A stretch of 17,404 bases of DNA from a virus. The notes under the pieces were generated by a model, which saw nothing but the letters and a program-made list of their open reading frames with translations, did not search any database and had not been told where the DNA came from. Below are positions 1-13,289 of the stretch, piece after piece; the first letter of the stretch is position 1; each line of letters starts with the position of its first letter. The stretch lies in UHGV virus genome UHGV-2147075; one strand, written 5' to 3'. The translations under genes and the position numbers were made by a program.

Positions 1-1416
1 GTGAAACAAAGCACTATTGCACTGGCACTCTTACCGTTACTGTTTTCCCCTGTGACAAAAGCCCGGACACCAGAAATGCCTGTTCTGGAAAACCGGGCTG
101 CTCAGGGCGATATTACTGCACCCGGCGGTGCTCGCCGTTTAACGGGGGATCAGACCGCCGCTCTGCGTGATTCTCTTAGCGATAAACCTGCAAAAAATAT
201 TATTTTGCTGATTGGCGATGGGATGGGGGACTCGGAAATTACTGCTGCACGCAATTATGCCGAAGGTGCGGGCGGCTTTTTTAAAGGTATCGATGCCTTA
301 CCGCTTACCGGACAATACACACACTATGCGCTGAATAAAAAAACCGGCAAACCGGACTACGTCACCGACTCGGCTGCATCAGCAACCGCCTGGTCAACTG
401 GTGTCAAAACCTATAACGGCGCGCTGGGCGTCGATATTCACGAAAAAGATCACCCAACGATTCTGGAAATGGCAAAAGCCGCAGGTCTGGCGACCGGTAA
501 CGTTTCTACCGCAGAGTTGCAGGATGCTACGCCCGCTGCGCTGGTGGCGCATGTGACCTCGCGCAAATGCTACGGTCCGAGCGCGACCAGTGAAAAATGT
601 CCGGGTAACGCTCTGGAAAAAGGCGGAAAAGGATCGATTACCGAACAGCTGCTTAACGCCCGTGCCGATGTTACGCTTGGCGGCGGCGCAAAAACCTTTG
701 CTGAAACGGCAACCGCCGGTGAATGGCAGGGAAAAACGCTGCGTGAACAGGCACAGGCGCGTGGTTATCAGTTGGTGAGTGATGCTGCCTCACTGAATTC
801 GGTGACGGAAGCGAATCAGCAAAAACCCCTATTAGGACTGTTTGCTGACGGCAATATGCCAGTGCGCTGGCTAGGACCGAAAGCAACGTACCACGGCAAT
901 ATCGACAAGCCCGCAGTTACCTGTACGCCTAATCCGCAACGTAATGACAGCGTACCGACCCTGGCGCAGATGACCGACAAAGCCATTGAATTGTTGAGTA
1001 AAAATGAGAAAGGCTTTTTCCTGCAAGTTGAAGGTGCATCAATCGATAAACAGGATCACGCTGCGAATCCTTGTGGGCAAATTGGCGAGACGGTCGATCT
1101 CGATGAAGCCGTACAACGTGCGCTGGAATTCGCTAAAAAGGATGGCAACACGCTGGTCATAGTCACCGCTGATCACGCCCACGCCAGCCAGATTGTCGCG
1201 CCGGACACCAAAGCGCCGGGCCTCACCCAGGCGCTAAATACCAAAGATGGCGCAGTGATGGTGATGAGTTACGGGAACTCCGAAGAGGATTCACAAGAAC
1301 ATACCGGCAGTCAGTTGCGTATTGCAGCGTATGGCCCACATGCCGCCAATGTCGTTGGACTGACCGACCAGACCGATCTCTTCTACACCATGAAAGCCGC
1401 CCTGGGGCTGAAATAA
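1..1416 (+). CDS. phoA: alkaline phosphatase, periplasmic (complete; GTG start at window base 1)
   Basis: 471-codon ORF; translation recognisable as enterobacterial PhoA (signal peptide [15 protein letters not shown], catalytic-serine region [12 protein letters not shown], metal-ligand region TADHAHASQ); TAA stop at 1414-1416. Confidence 0.97.
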
Positions 1417-1421
1417 AACCG

Positions 1422-1460
1422 CGCCCGGCGGTGAATTTTTGCTGTCGGGTGGTTTTTTTG
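1422..1460 (+). terminator. candidate intrinsic terminator downstream of phoA
   Basis: Imperfect stem CCCGGC (1424-1429) / GTCGGG (1444-1449, one G-U pair) followed by a T7 run at 1453-1459; the 14-nt loop is large, so tentative. Confidence 0.35.
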
Positions 1461-1534
1461 CTGTTAGCAACCAGACTTAATGGCAGATCACGGGCGCAAA
1501 CGCTCATGGTTAAAACATGAAGAGGGATGGTGCT

Positions 1535-1567
1535 ATGAAAATAACATTACTGGTTACCTTGCTTTTC
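1535..1567 (+). pseudogene. psiF: 5' fragment of phosphate-starvation-inducible psiF, disrupted by prophage insertion
   Basis: ATG at 1535 with RBS GAAGAGGGATGG upstream; encodes MKITLLVTLLF, which matches the PsiF N-terminus as I recall it; reading frame then runs into the phage terminus and stops at TGA 1568-1570. Confidence 0.8.
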
Positions 1568-1645
1568 TGATGCGCCGCGCGATAAACGCACTCTATCTTG
1601 TGCGATAAATGGCATCCACGCGGCGTTTCATTATTTGAAAAAGAA
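1568..1645. mobile_element. prophage right terminus (attR-like; candidate transposase-binding sites)
   Basis: Read toward the end, the terminus is ...CATTTATCGCACAAGATAGAGTGCGTTTATCGCGCGGCGCATCA-3'. Phage Mu right end as recalled is ...CATTTATCGTGAAACGCTTTCGCGTTTTTCGTGCGCCGCTTCA-3' (same CATTTATCG block at the same distance, same CG-rich terminal block, terminal CA). Only 78 bp separate the terminus from the invertase stop. Confidence 0.65.
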
Positions 1646-2218
1646 TTACATTTCAGGTTGCGTTATGACAGTCCCAACAGGGTGATAGCGGTAGATCGTT
1701 GACAGTCCAATATCATAGATAATTGCCAGCCGCTTTCTGTCATACCCTTTCTGGAGCAATCTTGCGATCTGCTCATGCTGCTCCTTCGTCAGTTTCGGGC
1801 GACGTCCTCCAACTCTTCCTTGTGCTCGCGCAGCAGCCAGTCCTGCCAGCGTGCGCTCAACTATCAGTTCACGCTCCATTTCTGCCAGTGCACCCATCAT
1901 ATGAAAAAAGAACCTTCCCATCGGAGTGCTGGTATCGATTGAATCCGTCAGACTGCGAAAATTGACACCTTTTGCGCGTAGCTCTTCTGTGAGAGCAATG
2001 AGGTGTTTCATTCTTCTACCCAACCGATCCAGCTTCCAGACCACCAATGTATCCCCTCTTTTAAGGCACTTTAAAGCGCGTTTCAGGCCTGGTCGTTCCG
2101 ACTTGGTTCCGCTCATTTTGTCCTCAAAAATCTGTTCACATCCTGCGCACATTAATGCATTGCGTTGCAAATCTGTGTTTTGGTCATTTGTTGACACACG
2201 TATGTAGCCAATCAGCAT
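1646..2218 (-). CDS. site-specific DNA invertase, serine recombinase of the Gin/Pin/Cin/Hin family
   Basis: 190 codons from ATG at 2216-2218 (the ORF track extends upstream to a non-start position); N-terminus MLIGYIRVSTNDQNTDLQ with catalytic Ser, C-terminal helix-turn-helix; strongly resembles Mu Gin / e14 Pin as recalled; RBS GGGAG 8 nt upstream. Confidence 0.95.
   Translation of the reverse strand: MLIGYIRVSTNDQNTDLQRNALMCAGCEQIFEDKMSGTKSERPGLKRALKCLKRGDTLVVWKLDRLGRRMKHLIALTEELRAKGVNFRSLTDSIDTSTPMGRFFFHMMGALAEMERELIVERTLAGLAAARAQGRVGGRRPKLTKEQHEQIARLLQKGYDRKRLAIIYDIGLSTIYRYHPVGTVITQPEM
2065..2125. promoter_or_regulatory. candidate Fis-dependent recombinational enhancer inside the invertase 5' coding region
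   Basis: Two 15-bp Fis-like sites with G and C at the ends and AT-rich centres: GGCACTTTAAAGCGC (2065-2079) and GCTCATTTTGTCCTC (2111-2125), centres 46 bp apart, at about +101 and +147 of the invertase gene. In Gin/Hin/Cin systems the enhancer sits at this position. Confidence 0.35.
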
Positions 2219-2231
2219 TAAAAATACTCCC

Positions 2232-2259
2232 TTTTGAGTGGTTAAAGTACTGAGATAAT
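2232..2259 (+). promoter_or_regulatory. candidate extended -10 promoter reading into the invertible segment
   Basis: TGAGATAAT at 2251-2259 (TG-n-GATAAT) with weak -35 TTTTGA at 2232-2237 (16-bp spacer); divergent from the invertase gene. Sequence-pattern call only. Confidence 0.3.
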
Positions 2260-2272
2260 GTGGGGAGGATTT

Positions 2273-2298
2273 GAGAGATAAACGTTGGTTTAGGAGAA
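2273..2298. other. left crossover site for the invertase (gix/pix-like, 26 bp)
   Basis: GAGAGATAAACG-TT-GGTTTAGGAGAA; the inner half-site is identical to that of the right site, outer halves differ, and sequence identity between the two inverted repeats begins exactly at the central dinucleotide (2285-2286). Half-sites fit the Gin/Hin pattern (..TAAACC). Confidence 0.6.
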
Positions 2299-2478
2299 GG
2301 CTCGGCGCTACCCGTTGGTGTGCCTGTTCCGTGGCCCACCGCCACACCGCCAGCAGGCTGGNNNNNNNNNNNNNNNNNNNNNNNNNNNNNNNNNNNNNNN
2401 NCTGGCCAGAGTCTACCCGACCCTCCGTCTTCCCGATTTACGCGGTGAGTTTATCCGTGGATGGGACGACGGGCGCAA
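2285..2478. repeat. left inverted repeat of the invertible segment (contains the N gap)
   Basis: Reverse-complement identical to 3698-3896 wherever sequence is present; mapping is x to 6181-x before the gap and x to 6176-x after it. Confidence 0.9.
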
Positions 2479-2797
2479 AGTTGATACAGGACGTAAGTTG
2501 CTGTCCGCACAAGGGGCAACGCTGTTAAGAACAGCAATGCTGGATTATTATAACCAGGACACTACGGGAACCTCGGGGATAGTCGGCATGGGATTCAACA
2601 ATGAAGATTCCATTACAGACCTTCGTGAGGGCAGCTTTAAAATGCCGGACGGGACAACATTCAGCAATCCTGTCATGGCAATGTCAGACAATGGTATGCA
2701 GGCTACTATTCTGACCTCTATCAGAAGCGGGTATGCGAAGGGTATCACTGTCAGACCCCGTAGCATTGCACTTAATTACATTGTGAGGGCAGTTTAA
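2287..2797 (+). CDS. alternative tail-fibre C-terminal cassette (no start codon; fused to the fibre gene only after inversion)
   Basis: Open frame from the crossover site to TAA at 2795-2797. The first ~65 codons are the inverted-repeat copy of the fibre constant/variable junction (...LGEGSALPVGVPVPWPTATPPAGW, gap, LARVYPTLRLPDLRGEFIRGWDDGRK), then a divergent variable end ...RPRSIALNYIVRAV. The frame is continuous only if the gap is 45 nt. Confidence 0.8.
2362..2401. other. assembly gap (40 N) inside the left inverted repeat
   Basis: Run of N; the intact right copy (3775-3819) is 45 nt across the same interval, so the gap is an arbitrary-length placeholder that is 5 nt short. Confidence 0.95.
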
Positions 2798-3411
2798 TGA
2801 GTAACACTGCAGTTCTGGATGAAAACGGTATCGCCACTGTAGCGGGCGATATCACTGTATATCACTATGACGAGGAAACCCGGGAATACACCTCATCCTC
2901 TGTGGAGTATCTCGCCCTTGGGGTGGGTACTCCGGCACATTCGTGCGCCGATGCACCGCCGGAGGCAATTTCGGGTTACGTGGTTTGTCGGACTGCCACG
3001 CTGAACGGGTGGGAGCATGTGCCTGATCACCGCGGCGAGACGGTATACAGCACGGAGAACGGTAACCCCGTTCTGATTACCCAACCGGGTGATTACCCGG
3101 CGGACACCACCACAAAACAGCCAGCCACGCCATGGGATACCTGGAACGGTGAGGCGTGGGTAACCGATACTGAACGGCAGCGAGCCGCAGAACTGGAGGT
3201 TGCCAGACAGCAACGCCAGCAACGGGTGAAACAGGCGATGGCGTCCGTCGATCTTATCAACCTCAAACTGCGTGCTGGTCGCAGTCTGACACCAGAAGAA
3301 ACGGCAAAACTGAACGCCGTGCTGGATTATATCGACGAGCTGAACGCACTGGATATCAGCACGGCACCTGAAATCAGCTGGCCGGAAGCGCCACTGGCAC
3401 TTGCCAGTTGA
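2797..3411 (+). CDS. tail fibre assembly chaperone (Tfa; Mu U / P2 G-like)
   Basis: 204 codons; ATG overlaps the cassette stop (TAATG); C-terminal region ...LNAVLDYIDELNALDISTAPEISWPEAP is typical of the conserved Tfa C-terminus; SD-like GAGGG upstream. Confidence 0.88.
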   Translation: MSNTAVLDENGIATVAGDITVYHYDEETREYTSSSVEYLALGVGTPAHSCADAPPEAISGYVVCRTATLNGWEHVPDHRGETVYSTENGNPVLITQPGDYPADTTTKQPATPWDTWNGEAWVTDTERQRAAELEVARQQRQQRVKQAMASVDLINLKLRAGRSLTPEETAKLNAVLDYIDELNALDISTAPEISWPEAPLALAS

Positions 3412-3417
3412 ACGGTA

Positions 3418-5010
3418 TCACGCCGCCCTCACGATATAGTTAAACGCGATATTGCGGGGGCGGGTTATGTTAAAGAATGCTCCGTTTAATACGGCTTTTG
3501 CGCGACTGTTTGTTCCACCCAGCATTGCGTACCACAAATAATCGCTACGGTAATTCCCCGCAAACACCTTATCGCCGCCATAGTCAATATTATTTCCGTT
3601 ACTCATGTACGAGATATCAAGCGAAGAATCGTTATCGTCATGACCGCCGACCAGTGTACCTTTCTGCCATGAAAGCAACTTACGCCCCTCGTCAATCTTG
3701 CGCCCGTCGTCCCATCCACGGATAAACTCACCGCGTAAATCGGGAAGACGGAGGGTCGGGTAGACTCTGGCCAGAACAGGATATTGTTCTTTGGTGAACG
3801 TAGCTCCGTTGCACTGTAACCAGCCTGCTGGCGGTGTGGCGGTGGGCCACGGAACAGGCACACCAACGGGTAGCGCCGAGCCTTCTCCTAAACCAAGGTA
3901 ATTGAGGACATCTTTTATACTGCCCTTAGCGATAATAGCGCGACCAATAGCTGTAAGGGTTGCCAGCGCTGCGCGGTCTGCTCCGGTAAAATAAGGCAAC
4001 CGATCTGCTGCAGTGGCAAGCCCTGCCAGAGCAGTGAGCGTGGCATCTGCCGGTTGTTTTCCGTTTGCCAGATCGTATGCAGCCTTGACCGCTTTCGGTG
4101 TGGCGGCCAGTATTTCAGACGTGCTGTTGATGGCACTGCTCAATTGTACGGTGCCTTTTGCCGTCAGCGAGGCAGCAGGCACTCCCGTTATCTGACTCCA
4201 CGGGTGAGTGTGGCTGACGGGCGCCTTGCCGGCTGCAAGGTCGTATGCAGCCTTGACCGCCTTCGGCGTGGCAGCCTCAGTTTCTGATTGACTGTCCGTG
4301 GCGCTGCTCAGTTGTACGGTGCCTTTTGCCGTCAGCGAGGCAGCAGGCACTCCCGTTATCTGACTCCACGGGTGAGTGTGGCTGACGGGGGCCTTGCCGG
4401 CAGCCAGGTCATATGCAGCCTTGACGGCCTTTGGTGTGGCGGCCAGCGTTTCAGAGGTGCTGTTGGTGGCACTGCTCAGTTGTACGATCCCTTTACGGGT
4501 CGTTGTTGCATCCTGGGCTGTGTATTTTCCCCGGGCCAGATCATACGCGATTTTCACAGCCTTCGGCGTGGCAGCCTCAGTTTCTGATTGACTGTCCGTG
4601 GCACTGCTCAGTTGTACGGTGCCTTTTGCCATCAGCGAGGCAGCAGGCACTCCCGTTATCTGACTCCACGGGTGAGTGTGGCTGACGGGTGCCTTGCCGG
4701 CTGCAAGGTCGTATGCAGCCTTGACGGCTTTTGGTGTGGCGGCCAGCGTTTCAGAGGTGCTGTTGGTGGCACTGCTCAGTTGGGTGAACCCCTTAGCTGT
4801 CAGTGTCGCGTCCGGGTGGTTACGGGAACGCACGTGTTCAGCCAGTGACTGTGCGGCTTCCTCCGTTTTCTTCTTCAGCCATTTCGTCCTGTTTGCCAGT
4901 TGCCGGGGGGCTCGATTTGATATCCCGTCAGCACCACCCAGAACCGGATCTGATGTCTCCAGTTGATAGATATTTTCTTCCCACTTTTCTGTTTCATTCA
5001 GGTTTCCCAT
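3418..5010 (-). CDS. tail fibre protein (constant part plus currently joined variable C-terminus)
   Basis: 530 codons from ATG at 5008-5010 (SD GGGAG upstream, 2 nt after the upstream gene stop; the TTG at 5016 used by the ORF track is less likely). Five tandem copies of a ~56-aa phage-fibre repeat (KG.VQLSSAT.S.SET.AATPKAVK.AYDLA); the gene crosses the right crossover site; C-terminus ...NITRPRNIAFNYIVRAA. Confidence 0.92.
   Translation of the reverse strand: MGNLNETEKWEENIYQLETSDPVLGGADGISNRAPRQLANRTKWLKKKTEEAAQSLAEHVRSRNHPDATLTAKGFTQLSSATNSTSETLAATPKAVKAAYDLAAGKAPVSHTHPWSQITGVPAASLMAKGTVQLSSATDSQSETEAATPKAVKIAYDLARGKYTAQDATTTRKGIVQLSSATNSTSETLAATPKAVKAAYDLAAGKAPVSHTHPWSQITGVPAASLTAKGTVQLSSATDSQSETEAATPKAVKAAYDLAAGKAPVSHTHPWSQITGVPAASLTAKGTVQLSSAINSTSEILAATPKAVKAAYDLANGKQPADATLTALAGLATAADRLPYFTGADRAALATLTAIGRAIIAKGSIKDVLNYLGLGEGSALPVGVPVPWPTATPPAGWLQCNGATFTKEQYPVLARVYPTLRLPDLRGEFIRGWDDGRKIDEGRKLLSWQKGTLVGGHDDNDSSLDISYMSNGNNIDYGGDKVFAGNYRSDYLWYAMLGGTNSRAKAVLNGAFFNITRPRNIAFNYIVRAA
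3698..3896. repeat. right inverted repeat of the invertible segment
   Basis: Reverse-complement identical to 2285-2478; similarity decays gradually inward past 3698. Confidence 0.9.
3883..3908. other. right crossover site for the invertase (gix/pix-like, 26 bp)
   Basis: TTCTCCTAAACC-AA-GGTAATTGAGGA; lies inside the fibre coding sequence (codons for ..LNYLGLGEG..); same core dinucleotide as the left site when both are read inside-out. Confidence 0.6.
4057..4797. repeat. coding tandem-repeat array inside the tail fibre gene
   Basis: Near-identical DNA blocks, e.g. CAGTTGTACGGTGCCTTTTGCCGTCAGCGAGGCAGCAGGCACTCCCGTTATCTGACTCCACGGGTGAGTGTGGCTGACGGG at about 4306 and 4606, with a further copy near 4141; corresponds to the 5 protein repeats. 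Confidence 0.85.
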
Positions 5011-12871: not shown

Positions 12872-13289
12872 CTATGATTTGTCGCCGTACTCGCTTTTTA
12901 TTTGCTCTTCAGCCTGCTCCAGCCACATCTCCAGATCGTCAGTATCGAGGGCATCAATCTCCCCCGGCTGAAACCGGAACCATCTCGCCAGCAGCCCCTG
13001 CGCCTGCGTCAGCGCCCTGGTTGCTCTCACCCATCCCCGTGATGAGCTGAAATCGTTTCTGTAACTGCAGGTAATCAGCCAGATCCATATTGTCGAGATC
13101 TTCCGGGAGAAGACCAGTACTGCGGGCAATCAGCGGTTCGTCCCAGTCTGCCGGGTTTTTGCTGATTTTGCGCACCTGCTTCAGGTCTTTTACCGTCAGG
13201 CGTTTCAGTTCAACCAGCTCAATTCTGGTGCCTGCAGCAGTGGTGAAGGGATAAGACAATTTAAAAGTATCGGATGGGGTCTGTGACAT
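12872..13289 (-). CDS. predicted frameshifted chaperone fusion product (E+E' analogue), made by a +1 or -2 shift near 12957-12965
   Basis: A second frame is open from 13129 to TAG at 12872-12874 with no credible start of its own (TTG only); it is the +1 frame relative to the chaperone gene and overlaps its 3' end. Confidence 0.45.
12954..12968 (-). promoter_or_regulatory. candidate recoding site: G5 run immediately before the chaperone stop codon
   Basis: mRNA reads GCC GGG GGA GAU UGA in the zero frame and CCG GGG GAG AUU GAU in the extension frame. Confidence 0.4.
12954..13289 (-). CDS. tail assembly chaperone (P2 gpE / lambda G analogue)
   Basis: 111 codons; ATG at 13287-13289 with SD AGGAG; position between tube and tape measure; Leu/Asp-rich pattern ...ELKRLTVKDLKQV...LLPEDLDNMDLADYLQLQKRF typical of this chaperone class; acidic Gly/Ala-rich C-terminus. 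Confidence 0.75.
   Translation of the reverse strand: MSQTPSDTFKLSYPFTTAAGTRIELVELKRLTVKDLKQVRKISKNPADWDEPLIARSTGLLPEDLDNMDLADYLQLQKRFQLITGMGESNQGADAGAGAAGEMVPVSAGGD

Follow-up and report, generated by a model that had tools for sequence, protein, structure and literature searches.

The DNA analysed here, referred to as the window, is a 17,404-nt stretch of the virus genome UHGV-2147075 that includes the right end of a transposable prophage. At this end, a gene for a small serine invertase adjoins a segment bounded by two crossover sites and two inverted-repeat arms; the segment carries one tail-fibre tip in reading position behind the constant part of the fibre, a second, silent tip, and a gene for a tail-fibre assembly protein, Tfa (Table 1).

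Table 1. Coordinates of the features at the right end of the prophage, in window positions
Feature	Position	Strand	Remarks
Right end of transposable (BcepMu-like) prophage	1568-1645	.	starts 5'-TG; interrupts psiF downstream of phoA
DNA invertase	1646-2218	-	190-aa small serine recombinase; Pfam Resolvase (E 8e-51) and HTH_7
Candidate recombinational enhancer	2134-2196	.	Fis-like 15-mers at 2182-2196 and 2134-2148, inside the invertase gene at its 5' end
Left crossover site (A)	2273-2298	+	GAGAGATAAACG TT GGTTTAGGAGAA; adjoins the invertase
Left inverted-repeat arm	2285-2505	+	takes in the N-run at 2362-2401
Silent alternative tip S'v	2285-2797	+	172 codons with a 45-nt gap; ends SIALNYIVRAV
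Tfa, tail-fibre assembly protein	2797-3411	+	204 aa; Pfam Caudo_TAP (E 3.5e-28); sole tfa in the segment
Fibre tip Sv, in reading position	3418-3896	-	159 codons; ends NIAFNYIVRAA; Pfam Collar; no tfa after it
Right inverted-repeat arm	3671-3896	-	226 nt
Right crossover site (C)	3883-3908	-	plus strand TTCTCCTAAACC AA GGTAATTGAGGA; reverse complement TCCTCAATTACC TT GGTTTAGGAGAA; within the fibre gene
Constant tail-fibre part Sc	3897-5010	-	about 371 codons; five Phage_fiber_2 repeats

Prophage end, invertase and fibre genes

Eight relatives share sequence with the window from exactly base 1568 and occupy seven different chromosomal insertion sites. The nearest deposited phage, the transposase-encoding PhiKM (97% over 13 kb), belongs to the genus Bcepmuvirus, and the window encodes baseplate J and tail protein I domains in a P2/BcepMu-like tail module. 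Multiple insertion sites, a TG end and a P2-like order of tail genes are thus all found, as in Bcepmuvirus; the transposase lies outside the window. Insertion of the prophage in psiF was seen in no complete E. coli genome, and the exact psiF junction in no species-representative genome. The prophage ends 78 bp past the invertase.

The preliminary description had proposed a Gin/Pin-family invertase next to the segment, and both the domain content and the identity to Mu Gin (77%; PDB 4m6f/3uj3, E 2e-93) and e14 PinE (76%) bear this out. In Hin, the Fis and enhancer contacts that are specific to invertases map to K47/R48/K51 and Q151/R154/L155, and Met114 is the wild-type residue (PMC3798978; PMC3575834). 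The translated invertase has the catalytic Ser9 (within YIRVSTNDQ), keeps Met114, and contains LKRALK, EQIARLL (with the Q..RL Fis-contact residues) and AEMERE. It is accordingly a small serine recombinase with Ser9, a C-terminal helix-turn-helix and the residues for Fis/enhancer contact, the combination that marks DNA invertases.

The invertase gene starts 67 bp outside the left site, a spacing identical in Mu. Within its 5' end, two Fis-like 15-mers, which were scored with a crude home-made scheme and assigned by position, have centres 48 bp apart at gene positions +30 and +78; Mu gin has both at matching positions, with 14 of 15 bases each, and the centre of the proximal one lies 96.5 bp from the left core, exactly as in Mu. 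Inversion is presumed to depend on Fis and on this candidate enhancer, and, as is typical of such invertases, may also need negative supercoiling. A scan of positions 1400-4000 for sigma-70-like promoters returned none, that of the invertase included, and a scan of the same interval for terminators returned the phoA terminator as the only convincing one.

The tail-fibre gene (3418-5010, minus strand) encodes 530 aa, and its ATG at 5010 agrees with the start annotated in A20, a relative with a closed genome. The core of the right site sits in a Leu codon, CTT, which is codon 372 of the 530-codon reading, so that the constant shaft can be joined to either tip. The right site had been placed within the fibre gene, where it is indeed found, and the exchange of the C-terminus between two cassettes ending NYIVRAA and NYIVRAV also stands, both cassettes being present; the length given for the exchanged part, the last ~150 codons, does not, the tips being 159 and 172 codons long. 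A crossover inside the fibre gene, with a constant part set against alternative C-termini in frame, is characteristic of a host-range segment.

Sv is homologous to the tip of T4 gp37 (PDB 2XGF, E 7e-14). The variable cores of Sv and S'v are unrelated to each other, and across the prophage family at least seven different cores are found between the conserved ends. Comparison of the two cores with phages of known receptor gave no match. Assignment of receptors by similarity was rejected: outside records of the same family, matches are either driven by the conserved collar part or weak (33-35% identity), the latter to structural proteins of Yersinia phages for which no receptor is given.

The start of tfa overlaps the stop of S'v (TAATG), and its own stop lies 6 nt from that of Sv. 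Both tfa and S'v beyond the gap are open reading frames. Tfa aligns over its full length with HK97 gp29 and e14 TfaE; a search by sequence found no solved structures for it. In place of one tfa per tip (S-U / S'-U'), a single Caudo_TAP gene follows S'v, and it lies antisense to the late operon in the window orientation. In HK97 and e14, each related tip of the collar type has its tfa, and the related tails of two loci from other genera (L017 and L051) include an inward-facing pair of tfa genes, each of which adjoins a collar tip in L017.

Crossover sites and inverted repeats

Two 26-bp gix-like sites in inverted orientation were expected and are present, sharing the TT/AA core and the inner half-site GGTTTAGGAGAA; as is usual for the DNA invertase family, each comprises 12-bp half-sites around an identical 2-bp core. 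The core together with the inner half-site (TTGGTTTAGGAGAA) occurs in exactly two copies, inverted, in the 17.4-kb window, and no third site was found there even with up to two mismatches (0.36 expected by chance). A window with only two sites points to a simple two-state switch and lacks the three or more sites of multiple inversion systems (Min/p15B, shufflon-like). The outer half-sites are degenerate, as they are in hixR, so that a strict 26-bp palindromic consensus has no match in the window with up to three mismatches. Upstream of the left site, an extended -10-like motif, TGAGATAAT, at 2251-2259 is directed into the segment.

Strict homology between the arms begins at the core T (2285), next to a mismatch at 2284 (G vs C) beyond which two bases agree by chance. 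The aligned blocks are 2282-2361/3820-3899 (80 nt, 99% identity) and 2402-2505/3671-3774 (104 nt, 92% identity), on either side of the N-run in the left arm. Inverted repeats of ~195 bp starting at the core had been reported; the start is correct, and the length is revised to about 226 bp (3671-3896).

Natural isomers and the probable inversion switch

Among complete E. coli genomes, 206 contain the inverted left junction, constructed in silico, unbroken at 98-99% identity, and 302 contain the junction as it stands in the window. In two inverted relatives (L007 and L012), automatic genome annotation gives an intact Sc-S'v fibre followed by tfa, and in ST131 the prophage inserted at aroA is found as two isomers whose parts are 100% identical. 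In six relatives (L002, L005, L006, L008, L011 and L016) there are three sites and a choice of three tips, again with several isomers.

The position of the exchange can be read from polymorphisms in pairs of relatives. When L003 is compared with L007, a polymorphism in the arm, 6 nt inside the core, moves with the cassette, and the flank differs at -1, which confines the exchange to TTGGTTT, the 7 bp surrounding the core. In this pair and in L002/L006, polymorphisms from 6 nt inside the core stay with the cassette in both orientations; consequently, the inversion joint falls within 7-13 bp around the core and not along the repeat. The family thus contains both orientations, joined at the core. 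Judged by these natural isomers, the segment is one that inverts at these sites, and the copy in the window is probably able to flip as well.

Very probably, the right end of this BcepMu-like transposable prophage carries a site-specific inversion switch of the Gin/Pin type, an ordinary, intact-looking case of well-known phage fibre switching. The overall reading of the preliminary description, an invertible fibre segment, is supported by the presence of the sites, the invertase and the tips and by the natural isomers in relatives. In the proposed mechanism, dimers of the 190-aa serine invertase would bind the two 26-bp sites and, with host Fis on the candidate enhancer near the start of the invertase gene, both sites would be cut at the 2-bp core (TT/AA); half of the complex would be turned through 180 degrees and religated, flipping the 1.6-kb segment (2285-3896). 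The constant shaft would then be joined either to Sv (159 codons, the state in the window) or to S'v (172 codons) together with tfa. Each tip would be a T4-gp37-like unit whose conserved N-terminal part corresponds to the inverted repeat; this part and the conserved last ~13 residues would form the collar, and the variable 70-85 residues between them would make up the distal, receptor-contacting part. With two possible tips, a lysogen population would release particles bearing two different tips, and it is reasonable to infer that these confer two receptor specificities.

Since the family lacks one of the two chaperone genes, inversion may toggle not only the tip but also which way the single tfa points with respect to the late operon, although this extended reading is doubtful. 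With the segment as in the window, tfa would lie antisense during production of Sc-Sv; Sv could fold without Tfa, Tfa could be made from an outside-in promoter, for which the -10-like motif at 2251-2259 is a candidate, or it could be taken from other prophages. If this reading is true, an inner inversion in the three-site relatives would flip only the orientation of tfa, leaving the expressed tip unchanged, and the segment would not be a plain switch between two tips but a chaperone on/off device, or one dependent on other prophages.

A frozen or half-decayed switch, in which a 5-nt deletion in the masked part of S'v would yield a truncated fibre upon inversion and leave only Sc-Sv functional, is unlikely. 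The N-run is 40 nt long, which is not a multiple of 3, and the corresponding block measures 45 nt in all eight relatives in which it was measured; fibre genes are also called pseudogenes in many relatives. Taken literally, 40 nt would put S'v out of frame, and a full fibre would be made from one orientation only; with 45 nt, the frame would be kept. However, the sequence around the gap is 99-100% identical to that of relatives whose frame is intact, the length of an N-run in an assembly is often not the true one, and the remainder of S'v and tfa are open. The expectation that inversion keeps the frame holds at the crossover, where N-Y-L-G-L-G is read both ways, and for S'v hinges on whether the gap is 40 or 45 nt.

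Inversion could instead proceed by RecA-dependent homologous recombination between the 226-bp repeats, with the invertase irrelevant or inactive. The repeats are long enough for RecA, and the arms are mosaic: the S'v arm of L007 has a middle block of the Sv type, which implies that gene conversion or homologous exchange does happen within the repeats. Yet the joint confined to the core in both L003/L007 and L002/L006, and the intact Gin homologue accompanied by all cis elements, the putative enhancer among them, in canonical position, make RecA a highly improbable agent of the inversion itself. That the arrangement is an assembly artefact, from a population of mixed orientation or collapsed prophage repeats, is hardly credible: an N-run does lie inside one repeat arm and the psiF junction is in neither the complete-genome nor the species-representative set, but the architecture recurs base for base in many closed genomes, e.g., in A20 at 99.6% over 3.5 kb.

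Identification of a Gin/Pin-type switch here is mainly of value for annotation. It accounts for the frequent calls of fibre pseudogenes or 'phage tail protein' fragments in the region, and for assemblies that break or differ at it. Sites common to other prophages can drive larger rearrangements between prophages (strain 4/0; ST131 preprint). A BcepMu-like transposable phage of E. coli joins the phages that hedge their host range by Gin/Pin-type inversion, and its family proves to have at least seven gp37-like tips that are interchangeable.

Relation to known inversion systems

The G segment of Mu resembles the window segment in its location, a transposable phage's right end, in its crossover sites, in the order of fibre, segment and invertase, the latter reading away from the segment, in the distances from the site to the invertase (67 bp) and to the proximal Fis-like motif (96.5 bp), and in a Gin that is 77% identical. 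By contrast, the Mu segment is 3 kb long with 34-bp repeats and a TC/GA core, as compared to 1.6 kb, 226 bp and TT/AA; Mu has two S-U pairs, and its fibre tips belong to another fold family. In Mu, com/mom follow gin, whereas here the prophage ends shortly past the invertase, and the tail module is P2/BcepMu-like, unlike that of Mu. The C segment of P1 (Cin) has long inverted repeats within the fibre coding sequence and crossover sites at their outer ends, as here; its repeats are ~0.6 kb, as opposed to 226 bp, it has two tfa-type genes, and P1 is a plasmid prophage.

Candidate carotovoricin loci of Pectobacterium encode a baseplate protein I that is 70-73% identical, followed by a fibre, with a full-length invertase in 4 of 11. 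As cited in PMC4272514, fibre inversion switches the killing range of carotovoricin Er (Nguyen, 2001); carotovoricin is a tailocin, not a phage. The P2-like prophage 'shufflon' of EPEC E2348/69 has three repeats and four variants with three C-termini (PMC4272514). The three-site relatives resemble this shufflon and Min of p15B, from which the window, with its two sites, differs. The phase-variable 'Mu prophage' published for EPEC E2348/69 was considered as the same phage and rejected: it is truly Mu-like, carries two tfa genes and has no invertase next to it.

The P segment of e14 in E. coli K-12, which flips in culture (PMC4272514), has near-identical sites with the same TT core, TTTTCATAAACG TT GGTTTGGGAGAA (pinE-proximal) and CTCTCGAAAACC TT GGTTTGGGAGAA, the former close to the left site of the window. 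Its StfE has the same collar-type tip, ending RPRNIAFNYIVRAA, and TfaE is of the same Tfa type. The two differ in that e14, a defective lambdoid element, has two tfa genes in its segment (tfaP and tfaE), one per tip, whereas the window belongs to a transposable phage and holds a single tfa.

Crossover sites, invertase and fibre tips

The proposal that the window contains an invertible host-range segment is upheld, in both observation and interpretation, by the crossover sites, the inverted repeats, the fibre tips, the invertase and natural isomers in relatives. The two predicted 26-bp sites, A (left) and C (right), are present in inverted orientation with a shared core and inner half-site: this 14-mer occurs exactly twice in the window, the copies inverted to each other, and no third copy is found there with up to two mismatches allowed. 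The nearest known sites are those of e14 (TTTTCATAAACG TT GGTTTGGGAGAA and CTCTCGAAAACC TT GGTTTGGGAGAA); Mu gix (TTATCCAAAACC TC GGTTTACAGGAA) is also related. The repeat homology begins at the core, as the preliminary description had it, with base 2284, the first outside, mismatched. It comprises blocks of 80 nt at 99% and 104 nt at 92% identity, far above chance, separated by 45 nt in the right arm and by 40 N in the left, and spans ~226 bp rather than the ~195 bp first reported.

Features of the invertible segment and the adjoining chromosome
Feature	Position	Length	Description
phoA (alkaline phosphatase)	1-1416
psiF start	3' of phoA		interrupted ~11 codons in, at base 1568
Invertase	1646-2218	190 aa	Resolvase and HTH_7 domains
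Site A (left)	2273-2298	26 bp	GAGAGATAAACG TT GGTTTAGGAGAA
Silent tip, S'v	ends 2797		fibre frame on either side of the gap; C-terminus SIALNYIVRAV
Tfa (tail-fibre assembly)	2797-3411	204 aa	Caudo_TAP; start overlaps S'v stop
Tail fibre	3418-5010	530 aa from ATG	minus strand; five Phage_fiber_2 repeats, Collar domain; C-terminus NIAFNYIVRAA
Site C (right)	3883-3908	26 bp	minus strand reads TCCTCAATTACC TT GGTTTAGGAGAA

The invertase shares 77% identity with Mu Gin and 76% with e14 PinE. It retains Ser9, the residue covalently linked to DNA, and Met114, a change of which makes Gin Fis-independent (PMC3575834), together with the basic helix-B and Q..RL residues, whose conservation is confined to Fis/enhancer-dependent invertases (PMC3798978). 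The window and Mu share a core-to-invertase-start distance of 67 bp and two Fis-like 15-mers at gene positions +30 and +78, 48 bp apart, each with 14 of 15 bases in common; assigned by position only, these are candidate Fis sites. Given the 67-bp spacing, the proximal one is centred 96.5 bp from the core, in agreement with the ~100 bp reported for Hin (PMC3798978).

Inversion would exchange the expressed fibre tip (Sv) for the silent one (S'v). Both predicted endings, NYIVRAA and NYIVRAV, are seen, and alternative C-terminal parts exist, with lengths of 159 codons (Sv) and, for a 45-nt gap, 172 codons (S'v) in place of the predicted ~150. The window's 40-N stretch corresponds to 45 nt in all 8 relatives in which the block was measured, a length that sets S'v in frame with the crossover; read literally as 40 nt, the gap breaks the S'v frame, and the claim that inversion keeps the frame therefore holds for the length found in relatives. 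Neither the 5,426 complete E. coli genomes nor the species representatives include the source genome. The fibre tip matches the receptor-binding tip of T4 gp37 (PDB 2XGF, E 7e-14), which ends in NIAFNYIVRLA. Across relatives, the first ~75 residues of the tips (equivalent to the repeat) and the last ~13 (RPRNIAFNYIVRAA) are conserved, and the middle 70-85 residues occur in at least seven mutually unrelated versions; by analogy with gp37, the conserved ends are taken to form the collar, and the variable middle the distal part that contacts the receptor. No phage of known receptor was found to match the variable core of either Sv or S'v.

The fibre shaft contains long tandem repeats at 4066-4816, with a 168-nt period and 282-nt units, 81-89% identical. 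Fibre length in relatives ranges from 530 to 640 aa and pseudogene calls in this stretch are frequent, so these repeats seem either to vary in number or to have been assembled wrongly. In E. coli A20 (L001 3753-4235), S'v is annotated as two pieces, a pseudogene fragment and a 'hypothetical protein'; translated from the crossover, it is open over 172 codons. Silent cassettes lacking a start codon are routinely mis-annotated in this manner.

Natural isomers and the exchange joint

An inverted left junction, built in silico by joining the invertase side at the core to the Sv arm, is found in one piece, at 98-99% identity, in 206 complete E. coli genomes, against 302 for the window-type junction. 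L007 and L012 have the inverted orientation: in both, annotation gives a single intact fibre CDS joining the constant part (Sc) to S'v, followed by tfa on the same strand, with Sv silent and adjoining the invertase. The ST131 prophage at aroA exists as two isomers with parts 100% identical (L005/L008 vs L016).

The joint itself can be placed from polymorphisms. L003 (window orientation) and L007 (inverted) both have GGTTTG, not GGTTTA, in the Sv arm, 6 bases inside the core, with more differences farther in. This arm accompanies Sv, whereas the flanking sequences diverge from position -1 outwards, which locates the exchange joint within TTGGTTT. Such a position supports site-specific exchange and counts against RecA crossovers scattered along the repeat. 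The arms are mosaic, e.g., in the middle block of L007, indicating that gene conversion between them occurs too.

One assembly gene, additional tips and exchange between prophages

The window and 12 E. coli relatives with a complete segment have a single tfa, coupled to S'v; its stop lies 6 nt from that of Sv, or of the tip replacing Sv in the ST131 aroA-site prophage. Mu and e14, by contrast, provide each tip with its own assembly gene, and related tails in other genera (L017 and L051) have an inward-facing tfa pair, each member of which adjoins a collar tip in L017. HK97 Stf and e14 StfE share this kind of tip, C-terminus of Sv included, and each is followed by a Tfa of the window type. When the segment is in the window orientation, tfa runs antisense to the late operon. 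On the plus strand, TGAGATAAT at 2251-2259 resembles an extended -10 element directed from the invertase side towards S'v and tfa; a consensus promoter scan did not report it. Possibilities for Sv folding without its own tfa are chaperone independence, this putative inward promoter, or Tfa from other prophages.

In six relatives (L002, L005, L006, L008, L011 and L016), the shaft carries a third fused tip, whose own stop codon, mostly TAA, lies inside the outer half-site of a third site, B, that directly follows the tip. One site faces two, so that any of the three tips can reach the shaft: A x B isomers (L002 vs L011 and L006) and A x C isomers (L005 vs L016) are found, and L002 and L011 encode an identical fibre protein (WP_074441576.1). 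Several isomers occur among near-identical three-site, three-tip prophages. The same architecture is published for an EPEC P2-like prophage (three repeats, four variants, three C-termini; PMC4272514), whereas the window has two sites.

In strain 4/0 (L004 5950-7100, NZ_CP023849.1), the segment is fused to the invertible region of another prophage, whose own invertase is 86% identical at the protein level; this suggests recombination between the two invertible regions, i.e., a larger chromosomal rearrangement. This fits the tail-fibre 'translocations' described in a preprint between P2-like and phiE255-like prophages of ST131, the latter being the label applied to the window prophage family (10.1101/2022.05.07.487787). 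In Pectobacterium species (L028-L037 and L052), this tail module recurs, with protein I 70-73% identical, and is followed by a fibre and, in 4 of the 11 loci, by a full-length invertase. These loci are possibly carotovoricin-type clusters. In such clusters the killing range is switched by fibre inversion.

Prophage setting and known switches

From base 1568 on, the window matches a prophage whose chromosomal place differs in each lineage examined (dcuC, irp1, paaJ, aroA, flgA, yehK, dsrB and ascB in relatives). The common sequence starts at an identical base, 5'-TG, in 8 relatives, and the nearest deposited phage is Escherichia phage PhiKM (97% identity over ~13 kb), a member of Bcepmuvirus that encodes a Mu-type transposase, head genes like those of Mu and a P2-like tail. 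Together, these observations indicate that the window contains the right end of a BcepMu-like transposable prophage. The minus-strand gene order is sheath, tube, tape measure, gpU, gpD, V, W, J, I, fibre, invertible segment, invertase and prophage end. At the junction with psiF (1531-1645), the prophage end, which starts 5'-TG at 1568, has two GCGATAAA(C/T)G repeats (near 1578-1588 and 1601-1611) that are possible transposase-binding sites. At 12872-13289 (minus strand), immediately upstream of the tape-measure gene, two ORFs overlap in different frames, where the P2 E/E' tail-chaperone frameshift pair is usually located.

Sequenced E. coli genomes commonly contain the switch, and the literature has in part noticed it already; only the single-tfa layout and the 40-N gap are points of note. 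The element is a further case of the Gin/Pin class of invertible tail-fibre segments, with sites and tips most like those of e14 and a position and geometry most like those of Mu.
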